Shown here: positions 3,348-54,409 of the stretch, piece by piece
Layout: every line of letters begins with the position of its first letter
Numbering within the stretch: the stretch's first letter is position 1
Assembly (NCBI RefSeq): GCF_002113885.1
Contig: NW_018405607.1
Coordinates: forward strand, 117,329-181,328
Length of the DNA: 64,000 nucleotides
From: Mizuhopecten yessoensis
Lineage: Eukaryota
Reading direction: 5' to 3'
Position numbers and translations under genes: made by a program
Notes under the pieces: model-generated
The model's input: the letters and a program-made list of their open reading frames with translations, nothing else
What the model was told of the DNA's origin: nothing
Databases searched by the model: none

Positions 3348-3710
3348 TTATAACTTTGCGTGAAGACGGACATCAGGCGAGCGTCCATTTTTGCTGAGGC
3401 GAATAGCCAGCTGTACACATTTGCAGATTTGATCGAGGACGTGGAATGGGACGGACTTGTTCACAGGCAGGTAGACAACGTGATTGATGAGGTAGCGCGC
3501 CTCATGAGGATAGCTTCTGTTCAAGGCCTCATAGGGATAGTTCTGGTTCCCGTCTTTGTGCATGTCGTCGAAGCTGCTGGCAGATGTAGCGTGTTGATTG
3601 TGAAGCTCGACACTACAGTTTTCTGGTTCGATGAGATTTAGCTGCGTAGCTCCACGGTAAGCATCTATCCCCATGGCATTCAGTATTTTAACAACTGTGT
3701 CGGGATTATC
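3348..3710 (-). CDS. DegT-like aminotransferase, last coding exon, ends ...VRLHAKL*
   Basis: ttctctccag acceptor at 3712-3711, phase 0. Encodes GIDAYR...ARYLINHVVYLPV, matching the DegT C-terminal small domain. TAA at 3350-3348. Total CDS 1359 nt = 452 aa. Confidence 0.9.
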   Translation of the reverse strand, partial: DNPDTVVKILNAMGIDAYRGATQLNLIEPENCSVELHNQHATSASSFDDMHKDGNQNYPYEALNRSYPHEARYLINHVVYLPVNKSVPFHVLDQICKCVQLAIRLSKNGRSPDVRLHAKL

Positions 3711-3982
3711 CTGGAGAGAAAGAAAGCAAGCAAATATGAAAAATAGGACTGTACAAGGTTGAGTGTATGGCTTTAATTATTATGGACCTTTGAGCGAGGG
3801 TATATTTTATCTCCCCAAAATAAGATTTGGCTTTTAAGTAATTTTAAAAGACACATGTACTTGACATGACTCTTTCGACCCTTCAAAATTCGGGGAAATG
3901 GGATTCGACTTCTGAAATTGATATATGTCAAGAGTTAACAGAAATCCTTGTTAAATATAATTTAAGGGTCGTGTTTATAGAA

Positions 3983-4330
3983 GGCTTGGTAGTCTAGTGG
4001 TAGGACGCCGGGCTCTTGACCGAAGGTTTGCGGGTTTGAGTCATGTCACATTATTGTGTTGCATCCTTGAGCAGGATTAACTTCACTCCGATTGTACCAG
4101 TCTACTCAGCTGTAAATTAGTATGTTGTTGGGCAGTGCTAGAATTGTTGAATGCTAGCTGTGAGTGCCTAAATGGCAGCACCGGCTGTATGCTCCCCAGG
4201 AAGTTGAGAAAGATGTTGGCTGGTTGCATGGCCCTATATCCACAGATAATAATTTGTGAACCGCTTTGAGACGAACTACGAACTAGGTTGTGATAAAGCG
4301 GTATATAAAAACCTTGATTTATCATTGTTA
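3983..4330 (+). mobile_element. tRNA-derived SINE with CORE-like middle and L2-like 3' tail
   Basis: A box (tagtctagtgg), B box (ggtttgagtc), tccttgagcagg segment, and tail tgtgaaccgctttgag...aaagcggtatataaaa. Confidence 0.7.
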
Positions 4331-4539
4331 TGATATAGTGTTTATATAGTTCTGCTTTTGATATCCTGTGTCTGCTATGCAACTTTGGATTTTTGTCCAT
4401 GTACAGTCTGGTAGCATTAAGGAATTCTACAAATAATAATGTACTTGAACATAAAAGTAAATTGTGTAGCAGTGTAATGTTAAAATTGACCTGCATTTAT
4501 CTTGGAGTAGCTCTTTGAATACTCTTCAAAGTTCAGGTA

Positions 4540-4845
4540 CCATTGTCTACAAGCCTTGTGATTGGTCAGAATTTACCGGTATAGCTGGAATCACTTGTCC
4601 CTTCACTCTCGTCATGAGAAAACCAGAGTCAAGAGAAGATATATGTATATCCGAGAGCATAAACCCATGGATTTCACAAATACTTTCTGGAATGAATATT
4701 CTGTATATTTGTAGCCTGAGTCATACTCCTGTTTATCAGCTAGTCTGTGTGTATATATAGACAATAATTTCTTCACGCTTTCAATTGGGAATTTGAATTG
4801 TGAATCGTATAATTTCATTGTTCAATTATATACGTTGAATTTTGT
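4540..4845 (+). mobile_element. Degenerate Crypton-like non-autonomous element
   Basis: Short IR attgtcta / tagacaat, TGATTGG after the left IR, and a degenerate terminal hairpin. Confidence 0.35.
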
Positions 4846-5029
4846 TTGCCTGTAGCAAAGGATATGGCAACTTATTGGTTTAAATATTTATTCTGTATGT
4901 CGATCACTAGATGTTTTACCAGGTTTCTGTAAGATGACCATTAAAAATTAACATGAAAATAAACATCAACATTTATATATATGTTATTGATATTAAACAT
5001 CTGAAAATAGCATTTTCATGTCAACTTAC

Positions 5030-5734
5030 CATCAATATTGGGAAAAGCCAGTAGTTATTGACTTCTGCCTGCATCCCCACCATCGTGACTTCCTCTGGTA
5101 GCCTCTCTTTCACATACTCTGCCTTTACTTGTGAGGCGTTGAAGTCTGTCTGATCAAAATTATCCAGCCTCCGTTTCATTGTGGCAAGTAGGGCGTTTGA
5201 TGGTTGTGCTCGTATTCTTTCTATCATCCGATCGGGGAAACCCCGGAGAAGTTTGATCACAACCTTTTTGTGGTCAATGCTTAAGGTTCTTGTCAATACC
5301 ATTAATGGTTTGATGATCGACGGACAATCTAGGAGAATATAGACCCCAGAATATTTCAGAATTTTTTTCAGATATTCAGAATGTTTCTGTATAGGATATT
5401 TCAAATAAGTTTCTCTCATCTGTGCATATAATTTCTGATCTTTGATTTTTGCAATAGCACCTCCAAACGCTGTTGAATATTTGATGACGCCAAAACTGAA
5501 AAGTGCAAGATCACTTCTAGGGTTTCCAGTCCTCTCAAAACCGCAAAAACACTCAGCACAATCCTCGATGACATAAATGTTTTTCCGTTGAGCGATGTCG
5601 ATAATAGCTTCAATGTCGCACCATTTGCCGTAGATGTGAGCGATGAGGATGGCAACAGTTTTGTCGGTGATCAGAGATTCGAGGAGTTCAACTTTAGGCC
5701 CAGTTGTTTCTATACTCACATCAAAGGGGACAAC
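5030..5734 (-). CDS. DegT-like aminotransferase, coding exon 3 (PLP-binding core)
   Basis: ttgaag acceptor and ATG|GTAAGT donor. 705 nt, phase 0/0. Contains motifs ITDKTVAILIAHIYG, VIEDCAE (PLP Asp) and FSFGVIK (Schiff-base Lys position). Confidence 0.93.
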
Positions 5735-5951
5735 CTTCAACAGACAAGACAAAATGTTCTTAATTGCGTTTTTATTTTCGCTTTTATTTAAGGAATACCC
5801 AAGATTATTTTGAGGTTATATTGAATATACCTAAATAAAGTTGTGTGCGTGTTGTGTTGTGAAATCTGTGAAACTGAAGTTTAAATAACAGACCAATGAT
5901 TTGTTTATGTTTTTACATTATATGATCCTTATGCATTTGGGAACTTAATTA

Positions 5952-6810
5952 AACAAGAGGCACATGGGCCTTACCGGTCACCTGATATATTTATACAGAG
6001 AGTTGATTTTGTTTTTAACATGAACAGAATTATTATTCAAAGTGACAAAAAACAATAAAACCACCTTATTCAATATCTAGCATACAGATTTAAGAATAAA
6101 AAGAATTTGAAACTAGCACCTCTGATTCTAAACAAGGAAAATGAAGAAATTTTAGCACACTGACTCCTTTGGGCCCCACCCTACAGCCCTTGGGGGTAGG
6201 GCTGGCTCAAAATGTAATATTCAAAGTATCATTTGCAATTATAAACCATAATAAATTTTGCCGCCCCCCCCCCCACCCCCACCCCCCCGGGGGTCAGTCA
6301 GGGCTGATTTGTGCATACTATCAAACTGCTACCTAATACTGATAATGCTAACCTAAGTTGAATTACTTCCAATGGAAATTAAACAAATGTTGGTCCAAAA
6401 TGTGATTTCCCTATATAAACTATAGTAAAGTTTACCCCCTCCCCAGGGGGAAACGTGAGACCCCAGGGTCAAGAAATTCACAATTTTGGTAAAGCACCTT
6501 AAGATCCTTCCATCTATGAAGAGTATTTGACTCTACCATATCTGGGTCTTGAGAAGAAGATTTTTGAAATTTTAGTCAATTTGACCCTTTTTGGCCCAGC
6601 CCCTCAGGCCCCTCGGGGCTTAGGAGTAAACCGGCAACAAATTTTATTGACCTTTGTCCATGGAAAGTTCCTGCAAAATTTCATTGAAATTGGTTCATTG
6701 GTTTTGGAAAAGAAGTCGAAAATGTAAATTGTTTACGGATGCACGACGGAGGACGGACGACGACGAACAAAAGGCGATCACTTGAGACTTTGTCTCAGGT
6801 GACCTAAAAA
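5952..6810 (+). mobile_element. Non-autonomous Helentron (HINE-type)
   Basis: 5' aacaagaggcacatgggcc...ggtcacctga, GACG microsatellite near the 3' end, and 3' hairpin tgagac-ttt-gtctca followed by ggtgacctaaaaa. Confidence 0.8.
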
Positions 6811-6986
6811 CTGGGAACTTATTCTTTAACTGAGACTATATACTATATGTATCATTTTAAAACTGGGACTATGTATGGAGAACTGTTTTTCCAGCATAAA
6901 CTATAGTTTTGATAAATCATTTCTTAAAAAAACGCAATAACTTGTAGGACTTTTATGGAAAATAATGAAATTAAACAAAATATAAT

Positions 6987-7086
6987 CAACAAACAGTGGT
7001 CAGAGTGTAAAACAAAACATGATCAACAAACAGTGGTCTGAGTGTAAAACAAAACATGTTCAACAAACAGTGGTCTGAGTGTAAAA
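6987..7086. repeat. 37-bp tandem repeat x3
   Basis: caacaaacagtggtctgagtgtaaaacaaaacatgat at 6987, 7024 and 7061. Confidence 0.9.
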
Positions 7087-7122
7087 GATCAGCAGGATTA
7101 ACTAGACTGGGATTTGAACCCT

Positions 7123-7376
7123 GGACCCATATTCATGAAACTGTTCTCATGCTTAAGTGTGGATATTGTGCTTTTGAAAGCTGAATTTCTTGTTCTCTTT
7201 CTAAATTGAAAAAAAAATCATATGTTGTCAATGATTTTAAAAACATTTAAGAGTGGCCGAAAACTGTTTACATTTGACTTTTAAATCATTTGATATGATT
7301 TAAGCAAGTTTTAAGAAAGTTGGTTTGAGCACAAAATCCGTGCTTGAGCATGAGAATGTTTTCATGAATAAGGGCC
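7123..7376. mobile_element. MITE inserted into a tRNA-like sequence
   Basis: TIRs ggacccatattcatgaaac..ttctcatgct / agcatgagaatgttttcatgaataagggcc. It separates the B box (7107-7121) from the A box (about 7405-7422) of a minus-strand tRNA-like head. Confidence 0.75.
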
Positions 7377-9083
7377 GAGGACTGTGATACTGTACCCTGA
7401 TATCTAACCGACTGAGCTATACCTAGTCAACATATAAGTGCCCAAGTCAAACTGTCCTACAGGTATATCCAACATCGTATTTAAGGGGAGGTTTACGAGA
7501 GTACATACGAAACTACCACAGTGCAGTGGGACAGGGATCCTAGAATCAATATACTGTTTATTATTGCCTGTTCTATTTTATCTATGACTAGGTTCATGTA
7601 TTTTAACATACTTAAATGTTGTCAAACCTGAATAAACAAAATGATTATGTTTAAGGCTTATTGACACTTCTTCAAGTACATACATGTACAGGTAATACAC
7701 ATGTGTATTTAATTTTGGTTGAATACCTGCCACACTTCATGTATACATATCTATATAAATCTACATTTCCTACATGTGTTGTTTTTAAATCCACTCAAAA
7801 TGTTCACCTAAGTTACCTACAATGTACCTTCCTATATACCCTTAATGTTTCGTGCAGCTGGAAACAAACTTTTTTAATACTCAGTAACTTAAATCGATAA
7901 ACAGAGAAATACAGTTTGAATGGAAAAATTATCAGACGTTATCAATCTTCTAGTTTGTTGTCATGATCAATTGATTAGTCATAATCAGACGTAAAATGAC
8001 TGGGCATTGTCAAAATAACTACCCATAGACAATTATCATGAAAAACACTGTAGATCTATGGGAATCGTTTACTTTATAGACCAAGTTGTCTAGGAAGTTA
8101 TTTCCTATGGTGTGTATGATTCAATGATGGGTAGTGAGAGAGAAAAAAAAGGAGTTCTGTAAAATTACATTTCTTCTTTTATTATTAAATATTTCTTAAC
8201 TTCACATTATAAAGCACTAAATACTAAGTAAAATTTTCATGGTCAAGGTCTTTACAAATTCCAGCAGATTTATAAGAAGACAGTATAATTGAATTGTCTA
8301 AGTACTAGTGTGTCAAGTTTTAATTCTGAGACTACTTTGCTTAATTTAATTCTAATTTTAATGGGAACATCTCTACTGGAAAGAAAACAAGTAAATAGTT
8401 GTGATCGGCATTAAACAACCAGATATCGATTCATTTAAATCAAATAATTGCAGCAACACCACCAGACAACCCAAAACTATTTGCCATATGCCAAGGCTGT
8501 GCGGGCCCTTTGGGTCTGTTGAACTGTTATAAGGAGCCGATTGCAAATCATGTTTGAAAACATTTATCAGGTACACGGTATCAACTTTTTATGCGATGTG
8601 TCTACATTGATATTGATTCAGCTATGGTTTATTGCATCAGTCAGGACAGGAAGGTTAATGTAGCGAATAATTGAACATTTTCACAACATAACTCGACTAT
8701 CAATGAAGCTGAACACTGCTCTATTGACATTTCATAATGGCCTCAGTCTATATATAGTACTCGGCAAGCATACAGCTGTACCCATTATAAATTAATACAG
8801 TTTGTGTCTGAACCAGCTAGATCGCGCCAAATAATGAATCTCAAATTTTGCCAACTTTTCACCTGTACAGTACATGCATTAGCACATCTAGGCCCAGTTA
8901 CTCTGTCCAATAACCTTACCAAAGTCAACTAAAGCAAAGTTTTACCTAAAGCTGTCTTTCAAAATTTATTATTTTTTTCCGTTGTTTGAAAGATGATTAT
9001 TGTGGTTCTATATAGTGAACATATAGTTTCCTTATATTGTCAATTGTAGCTTTCAATGAGTATAGATGCCAATTATTATAATC

Positions 9084-9830
9084 ACAGTCAAACCTGCTCA
9101 AGAGACCAATATTAAGAGACCATCTGTGTGTTGAGACTATTATTCAAATTTCTCCATTGTTGTTATATTCATTTTAAAGTGAACTTGTAGTATAATACTG
9201 CCTTCAATAAAATCCACTTTCAAAAAACTAAACTTTTGCCGTTTTTTTTTTTTGTGTAACATGAACCTGAACAACTTCTAATTATAACAGGGACTGTTCC
9301 ATAAGTTCCCAAACTTTCCGGGGCTATAGTCGTAAATGACGCATCTGTTGAAAGGATTTGTTGCTGGTGATGATGCAGGGGAAATAATTTGCACAAATAC
9401 CCATACTATTAAAATCAGAGCAAAATCCAATCTAATTAAAATTATATCTTCACATCGCTCCCGTTTACTGATATGTCGCATTGAACGTGTCGTTCAACGC
9501 GACATATCAGTAAACGGGAGCGATGTGAAGATATAATTTTAATTAGATTGAGCAAAATCGGACAAAAGAGGGGGACCATTAACAACTCCTTGGTGTACAC
9601 CGATAAATATGTGAATCAATCGTAGGCCACTGCGGCCATGTTTGATGATTGATTGGGAATAGTCTAGAAACTGTTTGGCAGATGAAAATAATGAGAAAAA
9701 GTATGAAGAAAAATAAAAATAGTAAGAAATGCAGCAAGCACAGTAAGTCCCCCAATTCATTTCAGGGACTTAATTAAGAGACCACCTGTAATAGGAGGGC
9801 ACTTTATTATGGTTGTTTTTAGCCGTACTG
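9084..9830. mobile_element. Degenerate CAGT-terminal (Tc1/mariner-type) MITE hosting younger insertions
   Basis: cagtcaaacctg start, internal aagagacca(c/t)ctg repeats on both sides of the insert, and an actg end. Confidence 0.4.
9428..9550. mobile_element. 123-bp palindromic MITE with 9-bp target-site duplication (Mutator-like)
   Basis: 60-bp arms with 1 mismatch and a 3-nt loop. agcaaaatc flanks it at 9419-9427 and 9551-9559. Confidence 0.85.
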
Positions 9831-10912
9831 TGAATATGTACTCATTAAACTGAAAAATGAACAGCTGGTCATGTACCTGAAGTAAAATTGCATTCTTTGA
9901 CATGAACATTCCACCTAAAGGTCGATGCAAGGGGTGTATCTCTGAGTGCCAACATTTTTAATTTACCTATATGGCAACTTGTTTAGATAGGGGTTATAGT
10001 CTTTTTCTTAAAAAGTGTCAGAGTTTCAACAAGTGAATCTACCTGTAAAACTTACCTATTTGAACTCAAGCACATATGTTGTTGATATAAATATATATAT
10101 ACTTTTTTTGACTTTTTAAATTTCCTAAGTTTCACATTTTTGAAAATGTTAACAAGCAGATCCATATAGTATTTGAGATAATATTAACTGAACTGATCTT
10201 TCAATAACAGATAAAAACTTAATTATAAAGCACAATTAATTAAAATTTATCAATACTCGAATTAGTATATACCTTAGTCATTTAGTGAGGAAACCAAATC
10301 TGTAGGTATTTATTACTGTAGTACCTTACAAGTGTATAAGTGATAAAATAACATTTTTTAAAGAATCAATAGGGGACCTCAATGCAATAGGTTATATTTG
10401 ACTGATTATGAACATGTTGTAAAGATGAACTATTTTCTTGTTACAGATTCCACTGCCCTGAGTGCATAACGTTAAGCTGTTTGGTCAGAATATGTTTTAT
10501 GGTCTAGGTCATGCATGCCTATATTTTTTTCGAAAGATTCATGTTTTACTGGTCTTTATTGTGGTGGGAACTTCCAACGACATATATCATATTGCCAAAT
10601 TATATATTGTCATTTCACTTCTATAATGCAACATAGACATCATAGCACCCAGCCCACACCATTTTACACTTCACTTGTGTTATAAGAGGCAGGAGGAAAA
10701 CACATTTTCTGAAAAATACATGCTTCGATGACTTTGAGAATGGGACCCATATCTTTCTGTGTGAAGAAGTGTAACCATTAAATGTTGTCTGTAAAGTTGA
10801 CACAAGGGATCCACATTTTTAACACATTTGAAAAGGGGGGAGTAGTGTGTCAGGTTTTAATTGTACATAAGATTAAGGTCGCCTTCTAGCTTCGATCTAG
10901 AGGGAATTTCTC

Positions 10913-10980
10913 TTAAGCTCTGTGGTAGAGTGTCCGACTAGGAACCTGGAGAGAGGGTTCAATCCCCAGTGCAAGCACAC
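10913..10980 (+). mobile_element. tRNA-like SINE head fragment
   Basis: A box aagctctgtggtagag and B box ggttcaatccc. Confidence 0.5.
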
Positions 10981-11427
10981 TATTCTCTTTCCTGTTACAA
11001 ATATATAAGTATTTTTTTCCTTGAGCTTGTGGTGTTTGACAATATATCGATCGCCTGTAGCAATTTTGTCGGAAACTAGCGACCAATTCTTTAAGCATCA
11101 TCTTCTTTTGGTATTGCCTTAATAACCCCCTTTTCCCATCGCAACCTCACTAAAGTCACCAACATTTGACGAATGTTGACAGCAGACTACATAAACAAAA
11201 CAGCATGCGACAAAAAGCGTATGAAAAAAGTTGTCAAGTCAAGGTTCATCTTCTCGACCAATCAAAACTACGAAAGGTCATATACCAGGTGTGGTGTATA
11301 ACTCATATCTATTCAACAGTCTGCATGTGTATACAATGATCTGAGAGTGGAATAACACAGCATATTGTGGTTGAAATATGTATAATTTACTTTGCCAAAA
11401 TTATAAAAGAACAAATAAAAAACAAAC

Positions 11428-11684
11428 CTTGAGCTTGTGGTGTTTGACAATATACACCATGTCTGGAATGTTGATAGCAGACATGATGACCTCTGAACCT
11501 GGAGGATAGTCCTTGACCTTCAGGTATAGGTCAAGGCCAGATCTGACAGAGAGGCAGGGCAACACCGAGTTCTGATTGGTTGGATTTGACCACATTGCCT
11601 GTAGCTCCTTTACTATTGGCTCCCTGTTTGCTGTACGGTTGATACATTGTGAGGCACTGAAAAGCAGGTCACGCCAGTCTGCGT
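11428..11684 (-). CDS. DegT-like aminotransferase, coding exon 2
   Basis: tttcag acceptor (11686-11685) and AAG|GTTTGT donor (11427). 257 nt. Encodes CLSVRSGLDLYL...PPGSEVIMSAINIPDM, equivalent to the SGTxAL...GDEVI region of DegT-family enzymes. Confidence 0.9.
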
Positions 11685-12209
11685 CTGAAAGATCATATTT
11701 AGAAATAAAGTCCAAATGAACTTAAGTACTGATTGTATCAGAGATAAAGTTCATAAATCTTGGACTTTTGTGGATTGCGTTTCACTTACAATTAGTAGTG
11801 TGTAAATTCTTAAGGAGTTCTGGGAAATATTTTCCATTTTTGTAACTCTAATATTAATAGTTTTCAATAGATTAACAGGTACTTTCCCATTATTATTGAT
11901 GGTGAATGTCAACTCACTGATTAAGAAGGTTCCAAACCAAAAAATTCAGCTTAACATTTTTAGAATACTTTAATTTATAGGAAATTAATTAGTTTTATCA
12001 TTTAACTTGGCATTGAGATAAAATGTGTGTATTTATAACATACAATGTATGGTTGATTAAATATGATATACCTTCCAGGGAAGATCAGTGTCATTCAATA
12101 TTATGATTGAGACATTTTAAGAATGATGAAGTCAACGATTGGGCACAATTGCTTTCATAGGGCTATTGCATGTCAATAAGTACAATTGAATCAGTGTCAT
12201 TTTTATGTT

Positions 12210-12580
12210 TAGTAAAGTTTACCCCCTCCCCAGGGTCAAGAATTTAACAATTTTGATAAAGCACATTAAGACTCTTCCATCTAAAAAGAATATTTGATTC
12301 TACCATATCTGGGTCTTGATAAGATTTTTTTTGAAATTTCAGGCAATTTGACCCTTTTTTGCCCCGCCCCTCAGGCCCCTGGGAGCCAGGGACCAAACCG
12401 GCCACTGTTTTTGTTGACCTTTAGCCATGGAAGGTTTCTGCAAAATTTCATTAAAATTGGTTCAGGGGTTTTGGAGAAGAAGTCGAAAATGTAAATTGTT
12501 TACAGACTCACGCCGGACGACGCCGGACAAAAGACGATCGCAATAGGTCACTTGAGACTTTGTCTCATGTGACCTTAAAA
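12210..12580 (+). mobile_element. 5'-truncated Helentron of the same family as 5952-6810
   Basis: Colinear with 6423-6810 from tagtaaagtttaccccctcccc to cacttgagactttgtctca. Confidence 0.85.
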
Positions 12581-13434
12581 GCTGATCTGGGACCTGTGTG
12601 TATTCCCCTGTAAATATTGATCAAAAGTGTAAACACTATTGATTAACTATACATGTGTATATACATAGAGTGTTGGTGCGCTAGCATGGCTACAATGTAG
12701 GTCATCAAAAATAATCTGCTTATGTGCTTATACAGAAACGAATTCAATTAATCCACCCAAATAATGAATAATTTATCGCCATATTTTGTTGTATACAGAG
12801 ACACCTGCTAAGTAACCTATATTTGTGTATTCAGGCCGTCTGTGAAAAGACTATACATGTACATGTTTACTTAAAGACTTTTGGAATTTTAATACCAAAA
12901 TGGAATGAAGCTACCAAATATTCTTTTTACATTTTATAGGAGAACCAATTTGACATTAGCAAATCCTGGCCCCAGTTCCTCCAAAATTTAAATTTACCTC
13001 TTTAAATTTAAAATTTAAAGTTTAAAATTAAACTGACCTCCGCTCAGAGATTTCCATAGAAACCAATGCTTAAATGAATGAAAATGGTTTTGCTTAAACC
13101 CAACAATGCTTTTCAATTAAAACTTTGAAAAATGATAGCACATCTGAGACAGTTTTTTCTAGCAAGGGGAAAAACATTTTTTTAAATTAATAAAAATCAT
13201 AATGAATTTATGAATTTTTGCATGAGCTGATAGTGGAAACATCTAAATCTCATTGACAAGAGGTGTGTGGACAAATGTAACCCCCCTTTGTGGTGGTGCA
13301 TGTCAATGTCGTGAATACACTTTGAAATGAAATACTGTTTATTCAGTCGTTTTTCTTTTCAAATATAATTTTTATTGTAATTTAACTTTATCTATAGGAA
13401 AACATAAAATAATCTCAAAAAAAACAATTGTTTA

Positions 13435-13990
13435 CCATCTTCGAAATTCTTGGGGTTACGCTCACTTTTATATATGTTCTCTGCACCCCTGGGATATGTC
13501 ATGACAAAATTGATGCCATACAGCTAGCTATTTGATTGGTTTCAGGAAAAACTAACTGATGAATCGCTAAGGCTGATACACTGTACCTGTCCTTTGAAGA
13601 TAACAGAAGAGCTACACATGACTTCCTGTTAGTTTTACTGTTAGGCTGCTGCGCTATTCTTTTAATGTATCCCATCTTTGCGTATTGCAGAGTTATCTTC
13701 TCTTGTGAGCAGGTATTGATTGTTACGTCATTTGTTTGTGAGAGAAAGTCATCAATTTTTTTTAGAAAAAGACGTAATTTTCTCACACAAACCAATGACG
13801 TAACAATCAATTCCTGCTCTCAAGAAAAGATAACTCTGCAATACGCAAAGACGGAATACATCAAAGACCAGATTAGTCTATACATAATCCACAAGTTGGT
13901 GCATACAGAGCCTATTATTTCGTCACGACCTTTACCAAGGGAGCAGAGAACGTTAGTGATCGAATGAAACCTTGACATTTCGAGGATGTC
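13435..13990. mobile_element. Degenerate MITE (also at 42630-43140) carrying a nested palindromic MITE
   Basis: Shares ggggttacgctcac..tctctgca.ccctgg.atatgtc, tacctgtcctttgaa and tcgaggatgt with 42630-43140. Confidence 0.55.
13670..13856. mobile_element. Palindromic MITE flanked by TA
   Basis: About 60-bp TIRs (tctttgcgtattgcagagttatctt...tgattgttacgtca). A second copy lies at 35576-35750. Confidence 0.85.
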
Positions 13991-14173
13991 TACATACTTT
14001 AGCATTAAACGAAATGAAAAAAAAATAGAATCCTTAAATCAATCTTTTGGGGGACATACCAAAGGGAAGTAATCCCTCAGTGACAGCACTTCGGACTATA
14101 GTGGTAAGCTTAATTGTGTAACACCAGAGACGTTTTGACGAAGAGAGGGCAAGTAAATGTAGTTAATATTCAC

Positions 14174-14207
14174 CAATATAGACACAAGTGTATGGTAAGA
14201 CTGGCAT
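14174..14207 (-). CDS. DegT/DnrJ/EryC1/StrS-like aminotransferase, coding exon 1 (MPVLPYTCVYI + G, phase 1)
   Basis: ATG at 14207 with an in-frame TAG 10 codons upstream. A G|GTGAAT donor at 14174/14173 gives phase 1, matching the phase-1 acceptor at 11684 and yielding ...CVYID-ADWRDLL. An acceptor (tttcag) at 14375 bounds the 5' UTR part of the exon. Confidence 0.7.
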
Positions 14208-14586
14208 CGTAACTGATTTTCTATGCCGTCTCGTCTATGCGTCACATCTTCACAAACTGTGCTCAGTCCATCTTCAAATTCTAGAGGGTGATGTTTCAAA
14301 TTCTATCTTGATGATTTTCAATCATTTCGGAGCTGGGTTTTTTCCTGAAACTTCTGATATAAGTTAGCTGCTATCTGAAACATAGAGAAATATTCACAAA
14401 ACTTACAGGGCATAGAAGCAGATAAATGTATAATACTAGAATTACTTAAAGTCAAACTCTGTATACAGGGATAACAAATTAATCAGCATCTGTCAATGTT
14501 GACTATATATATGCATTGCCTATGAAGTAGATTCCTGGGCTGGGATGATTTCAAATGACCTGAGGCGGCTAAGTTAGAGTTTGAAG

Positions 14587-24732: not shown

Positions 24733-25357
24733 ATAAATAACACTTTCTATTACCCCTTTGAAAAAAATCTAGGAATCTAATTGGTTAAAAAACTACAGTG
24801 TACCAAACCGCATTCGTAAATCTCAGGGGGTATACGAAAATATCATGGTTATACGGTCATGTCACGTGATTCTCAGCAGTAATACGGTGGAATCACGTGA
24901 TTTTACAAGGGGTATACGGGTCACGTGTTTTTGTATCTTCCGACCGTGCATCGGGAGACAACTCGCATTCGTCGTCAGTTTCGCTGTATACAAAATGGCA
25001 AAACGTTTCGCTTCGCATACTGATGAGGAAATACTCGCCAAAAGGGCTAACTATGTGCCACATAACACACAAAAGTCGAACAGACGAGCGTCAAACATGC
25101 TGAGGACGTATTTAAAAGAAAAGAATCAGGAAGAACAGTTCGAGGAATTTGATAAAACGAAACTAAATGAGGTACTGCGCCTGTTATTTTTCTTTGCTTT
25201 TATTGTAAAAGACTCAAAGGGGTAATACTATTAGTTACACGGACTTTTGGCAGGGTATACGGGATGGTATGACCCTACAGGATTTCGTATTTCCGGAGGC
25301 CGATAGGCCGAAGGAAATACGAAACCCTGCCAAAAGTCCGTGTAACTAATAGTATTA
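24733..25357 (+). mobile_element. Internally deleted Crypton-type (tyrosine recombinase/DUF3504-related) element
   Basis: IR tattacccctttga (24748) / tcaaaggggtaata (25214) and terminal hairpin 25223-25357. The truncated ORF from 24995 resembles the N-terminal region of DUF3504/KCTD1-like Crypton proteins. Confidence 0.7.
24995..25225 (+). pseudogene. Truncated Crypton recombinase N-terminus
   Basis: MAKRFASHTDEEI...VPHNTQKS...MLRTYLKEK...FEEFDKTKLNEVLRL. The RFA / PxNTxK / YLxxK / LNxxL pattern was recognised from memory. The catalytic domain is absent. Confidence 0.6.
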
Positions 25358-43545: not shown

Positions 43546-46465
43546 TCGGCAAAGTATTCATCCTTCACTTTGATGCTGCGTATTAATAATGCATGTATTG
43601 AAACCATTGGTAAGGCGTAGGATGAGCAAAAGATAAGTCTCGAGTTCGGCCCCTAGATTGTATGTGTTTTTGTTTGTTTTTGTTTTGTTTCCTAATACTC
43701 AAAATGCAACTCTGTAAAGTGCGCAGCCAGATGGAATTTATATCGAATAGATCTGTCTAAAAGGAATTAAATTAATATCTTATGGTAATACATGCGGTGA
43801 AAGTTTATTTTAAACGGATGGCAATCTTATACTCAAACGTCAATATTTTGTATCAGGAAAGATTGTGATGTAAAATCTACAAAATTAAACAAATAAAAAT
43901 AACTCATGCATCCGTACGTGTCACACAGGCAATTACGTTACAAAGATCTCCCCGTAAGACTGTACATGTATAAACACATGCCATGCGAAATTTGCATATA
44001 TATGTTGGGTTTGTCAACTTTCAACTATAAAATAATAATACATTGTAATAATGAAATCCTGCAAGATGACTAAATTGAGGGTTGACTTATGGCACCACCA
44101 CACAAATGTTTATAATTGTTATTTATATGTTCCTATCCTCGTACTGTGAACGACAATTGAGTCTAGAGTTTTTCATGACGTTATTTGTGACTGGGTAAGT
44201 CAAAACGTCAGACAAATGTAGACTTAAGATCGTTATATGATCCTAGGGCTTTCGCCATATGTATAAACGCAGGAACAGTGTAAGTCTACGTTCTTTGCAG
44301 TCAGCTGAGAAAATGAAATGAAACAGAAAACATATTACAGGCTTTTATTATTAGGATATCAACGCTTTATTTTACATGATGTTACTTTTGCGTAATAACG
44401 GATTTGTGAAAAAAAAATGGCGGTACGGATCATTGTGCCAGAACTGTTTATTGTGTGTCCTATCCTTACCCACACTTCGTCACCTTTAAATTTACGCAAC
44501 TGGATCAGCATACACCAGTTCCGTCTGAGGGATATTCCAAAGCTCTCTGTACATCATTATATAGCACTATGAAGTCGGCGTTAGATCCGCGCTATCACAA
44601 GGAGGATAATATACCAACATACCCTGTCTCCTGCACACACTCACGCAAACACGCATACACAATACGCATGGAGGCACGTCCTTAAGTGAAAGTGATCTTC
44701 GCTTGTGATAGGACGTACAAAAATCCCCCCCTCCCCCCCGTGTACATCATGTGTTGATGGAATTATAATATCCAAGTAAATACAAGTATGGACAGTCCTA
44801 GTGCTGTACAAATGAACGTCTCATTGTCACTGTAACAGTAACCGACGTTTGATTAAATTTGATCGAATCGAATTGGCTTGTTTCTTGCCACTGCTTTAAT
44901 AATTCAAGTTCAAAACTATTGGAATTACAGGAGACCTAATGCCTGTGTCTTTTTCCATTTGTGATTTTGAAGTTGTAGTTCGTCCGTTTAAAGATTTCTT
45001 ATTCATTGGAACACAGTTGTTCTGTGTGGCTGGCAATTACATGTGTATATCTACAGCGCGTTGTTCAGGCAGCGTTTTTGCGTCTAAGTCCGCGATTACG
45101 CGTTAGTAAATATTCTTTGGTATATTTTGATATCGCCGACTTCAGACGTTGAACATTTTGCGGCCTTTTTGAGATCAGAAATTCGTTGCTTGTTGGCTTG
45201 TTTTTACTGTCCGCTATCATTTAAAGCTGATTCCATTATTGTTCCTTAAGTAAAGCGATGCGTGCATGATTGTCGAAGTGTTCCCACAAGCAACAGGAAT
45301 AGCAAAGTACAACAATACAACATTTTCGAGGTAACAGTTATATTTAGAATGTACGCACAAGGTGTTAGCCTTCGGTTTTATGACATACTGATGAAATGGG
45401 ACCCTACAGTCTTCAGCAAATATACATTACGTATATAATATATTTGGTCATAGGACATTTTAAACATGAATTGCGAGGTATTTTAGCATACAGACTTTTA
45501 GATTTTAGTGATTATTTACAGTCAAACTACCTTGTGGTAAAATGGTCCAAAAATATATAACTTACGATTCGTAATGCTTAAGTTACAAAAAGTAAAAACA
45601 AACTTCGAGAAAAGGGAAAATTCGTCATATCCGAACGTTTAAAAACGTTCAGGAAATTAACAATAATTATAGCAAGGAACGGAAGTTTGCTTCTTCCAGA
45701 AGAGTACAAAAATATACAATATGCATTGTTGTTTCACGTTCAACTTCGAGGTGAGGAATGTGAAAACAAGTGATTATGGGGGAAAATACTTACTTCGACA
45801 CAGAAAGCCTTCGGCATAGCCCTATTAAAAACCTTAAAATTAAACTGCCAAAGAAACCCATAAACGGCCACGAATTTTGCTTGTGTCCTATTAACAGCTA
45901 AGGTAATTTAAGGACGTGCCTCCATTTGTGTTGTGTATGCGTGCATGTGTGCCGGAGGCATTTGATATATCGTCATTAAATGTTACTGTCGAGGACAATG
46001 TCGGAAAGGAGTTATTTCAATTGTGTTTTGCATTAAAGCACAATATAAGTATGTAATTTCTACTGTTTTGTTGTTGAGGATTCATACTGTGACATTCGAC
46101 ACACATTCATAAACACAGGCAATGGTGGTTTTGTCACTGTCATGGGAAAATCAAACACACAACATGCTGATGTTTGAGTCGACATTGAATCATATTGTGG
46201 AAGGTTGATCGACGGGGAGATACTTTAAAGGTCAGAACGGTACAATAGCAGCAAAGACAATAGCAGCACAGACTTAGTGCTTTTCTCTGTCGTGATAAGA
46301 ACGCCGTACGAAAACCTGTCGGTGTGACCGGCCTACTGAACTTCAAATACTTGTGTAGAGTATACTATGCTGTTGAATTCCCATGACCGTTTTAAAAAGG
46401 TTCTGGGTCATATTTTATCAGTATGTTTAAAACAGACGCATATACCTTGTTAATACATTCTAAAC

Positions 46466-47572
46466 ATGAAGGCTTTCACCTCGAACATGCTGTGGTTCTG
46501 GTACTTTTCTACCTGTCTTTCTGCCGTTTGCGGCCAGACTTTGGACAATGACCACGCTGACACCGTTGTACAGAACACTGACCGAGACATAATGCCGAAC
46601 GTTCAACGCCGTTTAGTTACCATTGAATCCCAACACGCTGACAGTTTATCGCGTATTGCTGTTCTAGAAGAACAACAACAGCATCAACTTCAGATAATAG
46701 CAGAACTTGTAAACTACCGACAAACTGACAAGCAACGAATTTCTGATCTTGAAAACCACCGCGAAAACGACCAGCGGCATATTTACGACCTTGAAAACAG
46801 CATAAAATTTGCTCAACGTCAAATTTCTGAGTTTTCCAAATACCAAAACATTTACAAACGCCGAATCACGAACTTTGAAAAACGGAGAGACAACGACCTG
46901 AAGCGAATAACAAACCTTGAAAAACTCAGCCAAAATGGTATACACCGAATGGCTGCCATGGAAATACAGAGGAAAAATGACCGACATCAAGTTCTATTAG
47001 TGAAAAGACTATTAAAGCAGCTTGAAAAACAAACGATGAATGATAATTTGCCAGACAAACAAAAGGATGCTCTGTCAACGGATTCTGTTCCCATGGATAA
47101 GATATTTTCTTGGACGGAGCGAACCCAAATGAAACACCAACCAATGACAAGAGTGACAGAAACTAAGCCAACTGTTATTGCGTTCCGTGCTTCTTTATCT
47201 CACGATATTGATAGAGCATCGATAAACATGCCAATTCAGTTTGATCAGATATCCCTAAACGTGGGTCGTTGTTACAGTGGTAATACTGGAGTATTCACCT
47301 GTACATCGCCTGGAATTTACATGTTTTCATGGACAGTACAAATACATACACACATGATGTACACAGAACTCGTCCGTAACGGTGGGAGAATCGCAGTTGG
47401 CTATGCCGGAGACACGAGTTATGACTCTGCAGGAACTGGTGTAGCGCTAATTGAGTTGAACCAAGGGGACGAAGTATTGGTTAGAGTACATTCTTTCAAC
47501 CACGTGTCCGAAGCAGGCCATATGTTGGGAACCTCTGGTGTGACATCTTTTTCTGGATTTCAAGTACAGTAA
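46466..47572 (+). CDS. Secreted C1q-domain-containing protein (signal peptide, coiled coil, C-terminal gC1q), intronless CDS
   Basis: 368-aa ORF. Hydrophobic N-terminus ending VCG-Q. C-terminal motifs IAFRASL, IQFDQISLNVGRCY..TGVFTCTSPGIYMFSW, LNQGDEVLV and SFSGFQV are typical of gC1q. AATAAA at about 47640 and 47756. Confidence 0.93.
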   Translation: MKAFTSNMLWFWYFSTCLSAVCGQTLDNDHADTVVQNTDRDIMPNVQRRLVTIESQHADSLSRIAVLEEQQQHQLQIIAELVNYRQTDKQRISDLENHRENDQRHIYDLENSIKFAQRQISEFSKYQNIYKRRITNFEKRRDNDLKRITNLEKLSQNGIHRMAAMEIQRKNDRHQVLLVKRLLKQLEKQTMNDNLPDKQKDALSTDSVPMDKIFSWTERTQMKHQPMTRVTETKPTVIAFRASLSHDIDRASINMPIQFDQISLNVGRCYSGNTGVFTCTSPGIYMFSWTVQIHTHMMYTELVRNGGRIAVGYAGDTSYDSAGTGVALIELNQGDEVLVRVHSFNHVSEAGHMLGTSGVTSFSGFQVQ

Positions 47573-50509: not shown

Positions 50510-50714
50510 GAAATAATCTATTTCATTGCCTGATGTCGTAGATCGTGAGAAATAATCTATTTCATTGCCTGATGTCGTAGATCGTGAGAAATATTCTATT
50601 TCATTGTCTGATGTCGTAAATCGTGAGAAATAATCTATTTCATTGCCTGATGTCGTAGATCGTGAGAAACAATCTATTTAATTGCCTGATATCGTAGATC
50701 GTGAGAAATAATCT
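50510..50714 (+). repeat. 39-bp tandem repeat, about 5.2 copies, immediately upstream of the glycosyltransferase ATG
   Basis: Unit gaaataatctatttcattgcctgatgtcgtagatcgtga recurs every 39 nt. Confidence 0.97.
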
Positions 50715-50720
50715 GGGAAA

Positions 50721-52424
50721 ATGAGGGCAAGTAGATTCAGATGGCGTCGCTTTTTCTTTCTTTCTATTGGTTTGTTTCTTTTGAGTGTCTTCATGTTTTA
50801 TCAGTCCTTGTCGATCGAGGGTGTCACGTGCTTGGACCGGTTTGTCTCGCCGAGGATAACAATGGACCTTGACGATCAATTGGTTGCTGGACACGGCGTA
50901 AGGAAAACAGCTAGCACAATTCGAAAATTTGTAGATAACAAATTAATTTCAAGTTTTGAATCGGATCTAGAGGGAAACATTATTCCTAATAGCATTCATT
51001 ATGTGTGGTGCCATAATCGTAGTCTCCATTTTGAAAATTATCTGAGCATCTTAAGTGCCTGGAAGGTTATGCAACCTGACATTATTGAATTACATACAAA
51101 GTATGATATACATGGTGGGGCGGATAAATATAATTTCTGGCTTGAGGATCTCAAAAAAACTATCCCTGGTTTCGTTGTGAAGGCGATGCCTAACTACAAC
51201 AATGATCCAGCTTGTGGTGTTTGGTATGGTATCGATGTCCTGATGGATCGTGGTGGAATATACTTCAGTGAAAATCTATTTCTGATGCAATCGTTGCGTC
51301 ATTTACGACGCCAAGAGTCATCGGTGGGTGTTACCGATGGTGATTGGACAGTCAGTCACGTGATGTCTGTTGACCATAACCGTCACGCGCTAGTGACTTT
51401 AAAGCAATTGTTGACAATGAAAAATACAGAAGATGCAGACAATATCATTCCAGATCATTATTCTCACTGTGAACAATTAGGAAGCGATTTAACAATTGTA
51501 TACGAAAATACGACATGTATTGAAATACCAGCTTTATATCCAAAGGATATTATGTATTCAAACACTTCATTTGCATATAATGTTAGGCTAATACTTTATG
51601 GTGAATCGGCAATTGTTGCACCTAAGGCAAATCTGCCAGGTGTAATACCAAAAATCATTCACCTTGTTTGGTTCAACAGAAAAACCATGGATTTTATGAT
51701 GTATCTAAGCTTACGGAGTGCTCTTACATTTTTGAAACCAGATAAAGTATATATCCATGGCGACAAACTACTGGAAGGAAGATACATGGACAAATTCAAA
51801 AAGGATCCAAGGATTATTATGGTTTATAGGGAAGTTCCGAGATATGTTTTCGGAAAAGATGTGCTTTATACACAGCACAAAAGTGATATAATACGAGCAG
51901 ATGTTTTGTTAAAATACGGTGGGATCTATATGGATTGGGACGTTCTCTGGCTTCGTCCTATCGACGATCTGATTCAAACCGGATATGACGCCATAGTCAA
52001 CTTTGATCACATGCCATGGCCTGATTTTCCAGATGCGTTCAATTTGGGCGTTCTTATGGCAAAGCCGGGGTCAGAGTTTATCAAAAGATGGCAAGCGGCC
52101 TTAGTGGATTACAGATCGTGGGATTTCTTTTACAACGCCATTTTGTTGCCTTACAAGATATACGAACGCCATCCTCACAGTGTACACATAGAGAAACACT
52201 TACAAGTCATGTGTTATCAACTTAAGTGTCATCCTACATTTCAACCCGGATACAAGAATTTCAACCGCGAGCAGGACTTTAATTGGAAGATGGATACTTA
52301 CTCCGTCCACTTCACATTTCCGGACCCACCAGCCTTGACCAACGCCTCCACGCTACGAAAAAGTCACGGAATGTTTGCAGACATTGGCCAATACATCCTA
52401 GACCAGCCTTATGAGTTTGATTAA
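50721..52424 (+). CDS. Type II membrane glycosyltransferase, GT32 / alpha-1,4-GlcNAc/Gal-transferase (A4GNT/A4GALT)-like, two tandem domains
   Basis: 567-aa ORF. Basic cytoplasmic tail followed by a TM helix (FFFLSIGLFLLSVFMFY). Motifs IPKIIHLVW, HKSDIIRADVLLKYGGIYMDWDV (DxD) and NLGVLMAKPGSEFIKRW. An acceptor tttgtttcag at 50368 suggests a spliced 5' UTR. Confidence 0.92.
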   Translation: MRASRFRWRRFFFLSIGLFLLSVFMFYQSLSIEGVTCLDRFVSPRITMDLDDQLVAGHGVRKTASTIRKFVDNKLISSFESDLEGNIIPNSIHYVWCHNRSLHFENYLSILSAWKVMQPDIIELHTKYDIHGGADKYNFWLEDLKKTIPGFVVKAMPNYNNDPACGVWYGIDVLMDRGGIYFSENLFLMQSLRHLRRQESSVGVTDGDWTVSHVMSVDHNRHALVTLKQLLTMKNTEDADNIIPDHYSHCEQLGSDLTIVYENTTCIEIPALYPKDIMYSNTSFAYNVRLILYGESAIVAPKANLPGVIPKIIHLVWFNRKTMDFMMYLSLRSALTFLKPDKVYIHGDKLLEGRYMDKFKKDPRIIMVYREVPRYVFGKDVLYTQHKSDIIRADVLLKYGGIYMDWDVLWLRPIDDLIQTGYDAIVNFDHMPWPDFPDAFNLGVLMAKPGSEFIKRWQAALVDYRSWDFFYNAILLPYKIYERHPHSVHIEKHLQVMCYQLKCHPTFQPGYKNFNREQDFNWKMDTYSVHFTFPDPPALTNASTLRKSHGMFADIGQYILDQPYEFD

Positions 52425-54409
52425 AAACACGCTTCATCCGGATTTTTTGTTTTCCCCGATGTCGGTGTTTTGATGGCAATCATATATTGTTTGAGATTAT
52501 TTTTGAACTTTGTATTTCCGAACATATTCTATCACATGACTATAGTGTTATTTAGTGCATACACATATGTCTTATGTTTGCGTGTGTACCTATCTGATAT
52601 AACCCATTGTAATGTTGTCAAATTATAATTAAATTATACACCGAGAGTCACATACTCCCGGTGTATATAATGGCGTCACAATGCAAACGATAGCTGCTCT
52701 TGTGATAAAAAAAAATGGCCTTTAATTCTTTATTTTAGACAAAGAATCTCCAGAGCTTGATTCTTGAATACCTGGAGGTTCAATATTTCCTTGTCAAATG
52801 CTATTTAAAATGACGTCATTCAATTGTTTTCATTATGACGTCGTATGCACGTGTAGCTTGTCTCGTCATCACTTGTTTGGCACATCTGGCGACCAGGCCA
52901 GCAGTGGTAATTGCACGTTCAATCTGAATAATGCATCAATTATTGTAAACTTTCTTAGTTAGATTGCCTTTGAGGTGCTACATTTTTTTGTATATACGGA
53001 GTGATTTAATTTTTATGCACATGATGTATGAACCATGTATATATTATTATTATGATATTTACATTTTTGAAAAAAATACAACGAATACTCATTTCACCGG
53101 TATTTTTCACATGTGGGAAACGCAATATAATGATGACTTTTTATTAAAGTTTTGTTTCCAGTGTTTCCAGTGTTTCCAGACAGTAACTATAAAAGGACTC
53201 TCCGAAAACAATTGCATTTGGAGTTTGAATTATGGTCCAATAATGAAGGTGTTTTCTGAACAAATGTACCCTCCAGAGCCGACCTCACTTTAAAGCTACA
53301 GTAGAAAAATATAAGCGAATATACATATTATTTTAGTCAATCAGTTCTCATAATACTGCTTCCGGTGCAAGATAAACGTAACACATGCATAGGTAATTGC
53401 ACCGAAACAAATTTGGTCAAAACCACAATATGCGAAAAATGAAATACAGAATTGTACACTACATCATACAGCTGTTTTGTCCTTCCAGGTTAATAAAACC
53501 ACTTATTCTTAAGAATTTCAAAATTTTGAAAGTATAGGTTAATTTGAAGCAGAAGAATACTGTCATAATATATTTATTGTATTGGGAAATTATAGTTATA
53601 GTGAAATCTCGTTTGTATGCCACCTAGTCCCTTATTGCCAGCATTTTACAAGGTCCCCGCTACTTTTCATCTGAACGATTCCCCTTAAAAGCTTCCCTCA
53701 ATATAGCGCCACACCTCTTAATAAGCTTAAAAAACAAATGACGCAATTGTTGAAAACTCCATTACTTTAAAAATCAGAAACATTCTGAAAGATTTCAGCT
53801 ATTTTGGTACTTCGTCTCTTTAGAATTCCTTGTTGATATACACAAGTACTCGATCCTTAAGTATAAGGATAAAAAAGTCGAAAATAAAATAAAATATAGT
53901 CAAGCTAACAAGACATTGAACATTCGGTTCCTGACAGTTAATTTGTATTGAAATGTTACTGTATTGATTGCTGTATTGATTATAACTTTGCTATTCCGCT
54001 TGTATCAAAGTTAGTTCGGGATTCCTTGGGCTTTTTTTAATTGATATTTATATGCATTTATAGATTATACAGTCTGCATATTGTCAAAACTTCTTGTTTC
54101 GATTTGTTTATTTACTGGATAAAGTCGAAATGATTTCAAGGTATAAATTCACGTATATCATATTTGTCATAATCAGTCATATAATGAAGAAATACAGTAT
54201 TCCTCAAGCTCTTTGTTGTCTGTTATCATTCAAACCATTGTTTCTACCAATTTTGAGGGTTTTCCTAAATGTAATAATATGTACACTGCAGCATTCATAA
54301 ATTGCAATAACATGATGGCATATATGACACAGTAACAAATACAAAAAACAACTTATTATTTTAATTTAGACGCATCGTTCAAAAGGGCTATTTGGCATAA
54401 CAATAAAAA

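Follow-up and report, generated by a model that had tools for sequence, protein, structure and literature searches.

Enzymes with the DegT fold place an amino group on a ketone that has oxygen-bearing carbons on both sides, and their substrate is often phosphorylated; described members include the sugar aminotransferases perosamine synthase, ArnB, WecE, PseC and NtdA/KabA. We analyzed a 64,000-nucleotide stretch of the genome of the scallop Mizuhopecten yessoensis (NCBI RefSeq assembly GCF_002113885.1, contig NW_018405607.1, positions 117,329 to 181,328 of the forward strand; hereafter the window), which carries on its minus strand a spliced gene for a protein of this fold. The scallop protein shares the fold of the sugar aminotransferases along residues 1-440, with the catalytic Asp and Lys in register. 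It differs from them in being 14-20% identical, in carrying SVR for GTxA and an extra helix with RGF, and in ending with a peroxisomal targeting signal of type 1 (PTS1). The partners of the scallop family are lipid enzymes, not sugar enzymes.

Other described enzymes are closer in proposed chemistry. RtxA from Bradyrhizobium elkanii has an N-terminal domain that transaminates dihydroxyacetone phosphate (DHAP) to serinol phosphate in rhizobitoxine synthesis (PMC3222319). The scallop enzyme is most likely a counterpart of RtxA for lipids: RtxA aminates, and the scallop enzyme would aminate, the C2 ketone of a DHAP skeleton, but RtxA acts on free DHAP (PMC3222319). In ether-lipid synthesis, a reductase, an acyltransferase and a synthase make 1-O-alkyl-DHAP, and a short-chain reductase then reduces the ketone (PMC13256971, PMC9244630). 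The acyl/alkyl-DHAP reductases DHRS7B and Ayr1 have the same substrate as that proposed for the scallop enzyme and the same step, after acyltransferase and alkyl-DHAP synthase, but they are NADPH reductases of unrelated fold that give an alcohol (PMC13256971). FARAT and related ether-lipid fusions combine reductase and acyltransferase in one protein of the peroxisomal pathway (PMC13012113), as does the diatom fusion described below, which additionally has ACBP, a pyridoxal 5'-phosphate (PLP) domain and alkyl-DHAP synthase. Within PF01041, CuyC resembles the proposed enzyme in that its substrate is a small C3 amino alcohol and no nucleoside diphosphate (NDP) sugar, but it is a racemase of a bacterial sulfonate pathway (PMC12814064).

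Fold, catalytic residues and subfamily marks

The sequence-only reading of the window had placed the protein in the DegT/DnrJ/EryC1/StrS family, and the profile search bore this out. PF01041 was the sole Pfam family reported (94.1 bits against a gathering cut-off of 19.8; E 1.3e-26), with a match covering residues 53-205 only. An AlphaFold2 model built on a 114-sequence alignment had a mean per-residue confidence (pLDDT) of 92.8, and its top Foldseek matches were all sugar aminotransferases (E ~1e-19), NtdA/KabA among them. In a structure comparison the top 24 rows were of the sugar-aminotransferase type (Z 26.4-33.1), and other fold-type-I enzymes scored at most 24.9. Judged from the model, the entire chain adopts fold type I in its sugar-aminotransferase form. 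An atlas search with the scallop protein as query returned DegT-named clusters only.

Asp155 (IEDCAE) and Lys182 (FSFGVIK) were invariant in 114 of 114 aligned homologues and in register with the canonical PLP Asp and Schiff-base Lys; the Lys aligns with SFFGNK of perosamine synthase, and canonical members carry EDCAQ or EDAAE. Both residues and SVRSG are present as had been claimed from the letters, and the accompanying view that these motifs are deviant held in part. DCAE and SFGVIK are ordinary, since they align with the canonical Asp and Lys motifs. SVR is a true departure: it stands at the site of the canonical GTxA phosphate loop, and R59 was found in 113 of the 114 homologues. A further mark of the subfamily is a set of ~30 additional helix residues between 206 and 275 that include RGF; at this place canonical members show GxNxRM. 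R261 was present in 107 and F263 in 111 of 114 homologues, and W326 was invariant. The two arginines may bind phosphate, and the helices may hold a lipid chain.

The fold matches would favor an NDP-keto-sugar aminotransferase that makes amino sugars for glycans, a role that we consider highly unlikely. Against the NCBIfam equivalogs ArnB, WecE, PseC, LegC, DesI and RfbH the protein scored 44-55 bits, in its N-terminal half only, with cut-offs of 375-650; a canonical control gave 170-349 bits over its length, likewise below its cut-offs. By score, fold and catalytic residues the protein is a member of PF01041, and it belongs to no named sugar aminotransferase family. In a tree of 83 of the ~500 sequences on hand, the subfamily branched apart from seven canonical sequences (SH-like approximate likelihood ratio test, SH-aLRT, 100), in agreement with the distinct subfamily proposed earlier.

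Peroxisomal signal and lipid-enzyme partners

The scallop protein ends in AKL, a strict PTS1 ([SAC][KRH][LM]) that was absent from the sequence-only reading, as were the lipid-enzyme fusions. Sixty animal homologues were named; the C-terminus was complete in 58, and 52 of those carried a strict PTS1. The 78 bacterial homologues that include a stop codon all lacked one. The six animal exceptions were Capitella (SQL), one Branchiostoma model, two tunicates, a crinoid and an oyster model fused to innexin. A group of 21 unnamed, putatively eukaryotic sequences ("other eukaryote") was selected partly by PTS1-like ends and is for that reason no PTS1 evidence. On this conservation, the scallop protein is likely imported into peroxisomes. 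An NDP-sugar role leaves the PTS1 unexplained; NDP-sugar synthesis is cytosolic.

Four sea-urchin-type homologues (P0122, P0123, P0158 and P0352) carry a low-complexity insertion of ~300-380 amino acids at the site of the scallop model's low-confidence loop (~365-395) and keep an SKL end. A Chromera homologue (P0253) is fused to a Redoxin domain and the oyster model (P0121) to innexin; either may be a merged gene model.

Thirty homologues were longer than 791 amino acids. Fusion to a fatty acyl-CoA reductase-type domain was seen in 27 of them; 26 of the 30 also had an acyltransferase, 26 an ACBP domain and three a flavin adenine dinucleotide (FAD) oxidase. The domain order is ACBP, PLP domain, fatty acyl-CoA reductase type and acyltransferase, followed in three proteins by the FAD oxidase, which matches alkyl-DHAP synthase at E 6e-128 (next family, 2e-25). 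Named members of the fusion cluster are Chaetoceros neogracilis and C. debilis, the latter with all five domains in 2479 amino acids. The Asp and Lys motifs were intact in 29 of 29 fusions, and domain scans of the diatom fusions reported no separate reductase domain besides the fatty acyl-CoA reductase type. Forty-one metagenome loci were retrieved via reductase and acyltransferase patterns. All four catalytic domains were present in 23 of them and the reductase in 33; four of the latter begin inside the reductase, and 28 of the 29 others contain the PLP domain. With a fusion as atlas query, scores were at most 0.83 and are leads only.

Bacterial neighborhoods were examined in 80 loci kept out of 536. 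In an Opitutaceae locus (L065), consecutive genes for a reductase, an acyltransferase, a HAD phosphatase and an alkyl-DHAP synthase (E 3e-124) precede the aminotransferase, and the final open reading frame (ORF) before it overlaps the start of the aminotransferase match. In G191 the gene that follows the synthase is instead a short-chain reductase; the aminotransferase is found on a different contig, adjoining another short-chain reductase. Glycerol-3-phosphate dehydrogenase stood directly downstream of the aminotransferase in four of the 80 loci, three of them with an acyltransferase directly upstream (L025, L026 and L029; Rhodothermota, Thermomicrobiota and Chloroflexota) and one with the dehydrogenase alone (L036). 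Among unnamed proteins, the aminotransferase was fused to glycerol-3-phosphate dehydrogenase (P0251, P0267) and, in both orders, to acyltransferase (P0206, P0288). A family scan of 115 neighboring ORFs, mostly drawn from 238 same-strand neighbors, contained no NDP-sugar dehydratase, epimerase, nucleotidyltransferase or hexapeptide acetyltransferase family. The NDP-amino-sugar framing of the sequence-only reading found no support in this context.

All partners make or use a DHAP-type ketone, and we therefore read the enzyme as one of DHAP-lipid chemistry. Working in the biosynthetic direction, it probably acts as a transaminase on the C2 ketone of alkyl- or acyl-DHAP and gives a serinol-phosphate lipid. 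The scallop enzyme would be imported into peroxisomes via AKL, where the C2 ketone of 1-O-alkyl-DHAP (or 1-acyl-DHAP) would become an amine in the slot where a reductase normally gives an alcohol, by ordinary ping-pong chemistry at Lys182 in which glutamate or another amino acid would serve as donor. Because C2 of acyl- or alkyl-DHAP is the sole ketone of the required type on offer, the product would be 1-O-radyl-serinol-3-phosphate; phosphate loss and N-acylation would then yield an ether-linked ceramide-like lipid. The serinol lipids of didemnid tunicates are ether-linked at serinol. The scallop genome contains alkyl-DHAP-synthase-like exons (E 1e-8 and 7e-4), which makes the substrate plausible in this host. 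Didemnid tunicates and one sponge are reported sources of serinol lipids (PMC6264260, PMC12228663, PMC3222319). The substrate had previously been left wholly open, and the PTS1 and the fusions now point to peroxisomal DHAP-lipid chemistry.

Several observations weigh against the DHAP-lipid reading. Searches over mostly non-subscription literature yielded, among the matches listed, no account of alkyl-serinol lipids from molluscs or diatoms. Tunicates are reported as the chief source of serinolipids, yet a PTS1 is missing from both of their proteins. The diatom fusions count as a single event because they come from one lineage, and they are ~30% identical to the scallop protein. The five-gene operon of L065 was observed once; G171 has the same four-gene operon, with the aminotransferase not adjoining it. 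In 70 of the 80 bacterial loci the aminotransferase has no glycerolipid gene and no FAD oxidase as a neighbor. Five loci pair it with a DprE1-like oxidase, and GT4 glycosyltransferase genes, which would suit the making of glycans, occur on the opposite strand in the retrieved DNA of seven of the 80 loci, five of them Planctomycetota. An alkyl-DHAP-synthase-like match (E<=1e-30) was present in six of the 80 carrier genomes, which are drafts, so that an alkyl ether cannot be the family-wide substrate. Given this sparseness and the lipid neighbors, the aminotransferase is an extra that ether-lipid sets may or may not include, and most bacteria must use it on something else than alkyl-DHAP from the synthase, such as acyl-DHAP or DHAP. 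Within a single bacterial class (201 genomes), the aminotransferase was found in three genomes, the synthase in eight and both in two, the starting genome included, numbers too sparse for co-occurrence.

The 74 carriers that gave no synthase match would also suit scavenging, in which the same skeleton serves another job: the reverse reaction, salvaging dietary serinol lipids for the ether-lipid pathway, or racemization or elimination on a serinol-type substrate. Transamination is reversible, the dehydrogenase pairings are compatible with either direction, and CuyC racemizes the C3 amino alcohol cysteinolate, which keeps other chemistries possible for the family (PMC12814064). However, the fusion and the operon with fatty acyl-CoA reductase, acyltransferase and synthase are biosynthetic sets, and the invariance of Lys182 argues against other PLP chemistry. 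In the known DegT-fold dehydratases ColD and E1, His takes the position of the Schiff-base Lys. We consider another job on the same skeleton unlikely.

The loci that lack a lipid clue, together with the unfused state of the scallop protein, would equally fit amination of some other peroxisomal carbonyl, such as a fatty aldehyde, DHAP in free form or a small sulfonate ketone from which cysteinolate would arise, with the lipid partners as a specialized use in diatoms and a few bacteria. Algae and invertebrates contain cysteinolate, whose biosynthesis the source describes as unknown (PMC12814064). We regard this alternative as quite unlikely: the five-domain fusion, the operon, the dehydrogenase fusion and the acyltransferase fusions in both orders converge on glycerolipids, and HpsN/CuyB-type families were absent from the 115 scanned neighbors.

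The bacterial loci showed further features. The DprE1-like FAD oxidase is directly upstream of the aminotransferase in L011, L044, L048, L068 and L069 and fused to it in P0202 (Planctomycetales, Nitrospirales); it could supply a lipid-linked ketone. The verrucomicrobial operons L128 (G171:C19, 3192-7869), L065 (2831-9212) and L129 (5646-9640) contain a reductase and/or acyltransferase, a HAD phosphatase and a Dictyostelium-like alkyl-DHAP synthase, and suggest ether-lipid synthesis of the aerobic type among bacteria related to Opitutae. A convergent acyl-AMP ligase-acyl carrier protein gene is also present in L065. In L132 (G023) and L133 (G055), an alkyl-DHAP-synthase-like gene has glycerol-3-phosphate dehydrogenase immediately after it, and the aminotransferase is elsewhere in both genomes.

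Gene structure and other features of the window

Four minus-strand coding exons encode 452 amino acids and a stop in a spliced coding sequence of 1359 nt, with three GT-AG introns in phases 1, 0 and 0 (Table 1). The predicted product is letter for letter identical to P0001, an uncharacterized M. yessoensis protein with the NCBI label LOC110449309. Contigs from public runs (four runs, four studies) lack the introns at the predicted splice sites. Exons 2-3-4 are joined in X10 record 9 and X4 record 14, and exons 3-4 in X1 record 4 and X7 record 20; exon 1 is read by loose contig ends of X7 and X13 behind 11685. The RNA type of the source runs was presumed by the tool, none being recorded as RNA, and the joins are taken as splicing because they coincide with the predicted splice sites and the gene has a single copy in the scallop genome. 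The gene is real, and the earlier claim of a spliced animal gene is confirmed.

Upstream of the ATG there are in-frame stops. X1 record 7 and X4 record 19 run past the acceptor and extend beyond 14376 into sequence not aligned there, so a further upstream untranslated exon is probable. Seventy-two fragmentary homologues end right after one shared motif at the position of intron 3, which suggests that this intron position is conserved among homologues. Other splice choices were considered: among 96 open combinations, the single one with consensus sites matches the database protein and the contig joins. Contamination or a processed copy was ruled out by the introns, the single genomic copy and orthologues in other bivalves.

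Table 1. Coordinates of the aminotransferase gene in the window (position 1 is the first letter of the stretch)
Feature	Position	Strand	Basis
5' untranslated part of first coding exon; acceptor (ttcag) at ~14374-14375	14208..14374	-	contigs, in-frame stops
First coding exon, coding part (ATG at 14207; residues 1-11; phase-1 donor)	14174..14207	-	contig-read junction to exon 2
Intron 1, 2489 nt, GT-AG	11685..14173	-	splice model, contigs
Coding exon 2; carries subfamily motif LSVR	11428..11684	-	splice model, contigs, alignment
Intron 2, 5693 nt, GT-AG, with dispersed repeats	5735..11427	-	splice model, contigs
Coding exon 3; PLP Asp155, Schiff-base Lys182, enlarged helical segment (~206-275) with RGF	5030..5734	-	splice model, contigs, structure model, alignment
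Intron 3, 1319 nt, GT-AG	3711..5029	-	splice model, contigs
Coding exon 4; small domain, low-confidence loop ~365-395, stop codon	3348..3710	-	splice model, contigs, structure model
C-terminal AKL (PTS1)	3351..3359	-	sequence; conserved end in animal homologues

Intron repeats with very high contig depth were seen at ~6100-6800 and 12220-12570, at 13660-13870 and at 3980-4300. By eye, the 13660-13870 element has inverted arms, the 3980-4300 element is tRNA-derived in look, and a long near-perfect palindrome lies at ~9430-9550 inside intron 2. Elsewhere in the window, a single plus-strand ORF of ~567 amino acids (50712-52421) combines a hydrophobic anchor at the N-terminus with a DxD glycosyltransferase domain (Gly_transf_sug, E 3.8e-11); its N-terminal half resembles a second, degenerate copy of the domain. 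Another single plus-strand ORF (46454-47569) opens with a signal-like stretch, has a middle resembling a coiled coil and contains a C1q domain (E 8.2e-22). The second half of a 150-amino-acid stop-to-stop frame at 24773-25222 (plus strand) bears what we take to be a likeness to Crypton-type tyrosine-recombinase relics. Tandem repeats are located at ~1545-1800 and 54370-55060, the latter with long open frames on both strands.

Range, descent and significance

At E<=1e-30, 744 matches were found among 1.84 billion representatives. Named animal matches came from bivalves, gastropods, cephalopods, annelids, nemerteans, a rotifer, a tardigrade, a centipede (myriapod), a sea spider, echinoderms, hemichordates, amphioxus, tunicates, sea anemones and a soft coral, and named protist matches from Chromera and diatoms. 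The bacterial branch included at least 10 phyla within the 80 kept loci. No match carried a vertebrate, insect or nematode label among the matches listed (best 120 of 134, 30 of 30 and 120 of 345), which agrees with the statement that the family is not part of standard vertebrate metabolism. The family was likely lost in vertebrates, insects and nematodes, a conclusion kept at that strength because many matches are unnamed.

Animals were not nested among bacteria in the tree. When all 48 eukaryote-assigned rows were forced together, the approximately unbiased test gave p-AU 0.815, and the constrained tree scored 39.6 log-likelihood units above the quick-search tree. The quick tree had placed the diatom domain beside bacteria (support 99); this placement was not used because the constrained tree scored higher and the quick search was below its optimum. 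A single old eukaryotic origin, not rejected by this test, is possible, and the tree points to no particular donor. With animals outside bacteria, a wide range and a single eukaryotic clade that was not rejected, the pattern is not that of recent bacterium-to-animal transfer, and the family looks old and vertically kept. The gene had been described as either anciently transferred or patchily retained, and patchy retention fits better than transfer into animals.

No paper on the subfamily, its PTS1 or the five-domain fusion was found among the matches listed by searches over mostly non-subscription journals, and prior mention is possible. The words "aminotransferase", "DegT", "diatom" and "ACBP" do not occur in the main text of a 2026 survey of eukaryotic ether-lipid genes (PMC13012113). 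1-O-hexadecyl-serinol has the same formula as d19:0 sphinganine, C19H41NO2, and alkyl-serinol lipids could for this reason have been filed as odd-chain sphingolipids.

As a wider picture, which we hold as possible rather than probable, most invertebrate phyla and many protists may have kept a fourth peroxisomal ether-lipid enzyme that was lost in vertebrates. It would divert alkyl-DHAP to a class of serinol lipids with an ether link, which would resemble ceramides but arise without serine palmitoyltransferase, and in one diatom five-domain synthase the whole route would be contained. If this is true, the database names "perosamine synthetase" and "UDP-Ara4N aminotransferase" would be wrong for these proteins. 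The enzyme would be a candidate source of the serinol unit in marine serinolipids, and its gene could be used to test their origin. It would also represent an unrecognized animal branch at the peroxisomal ether-lipid step and a second path to ceramide-like lipids. Its range in molluscs, annelids, echinoderms, cnidarians, amphioxus and diatoms would then be relevant to marine lipidomics and to the paring-down of vertebrate peroxisomes.

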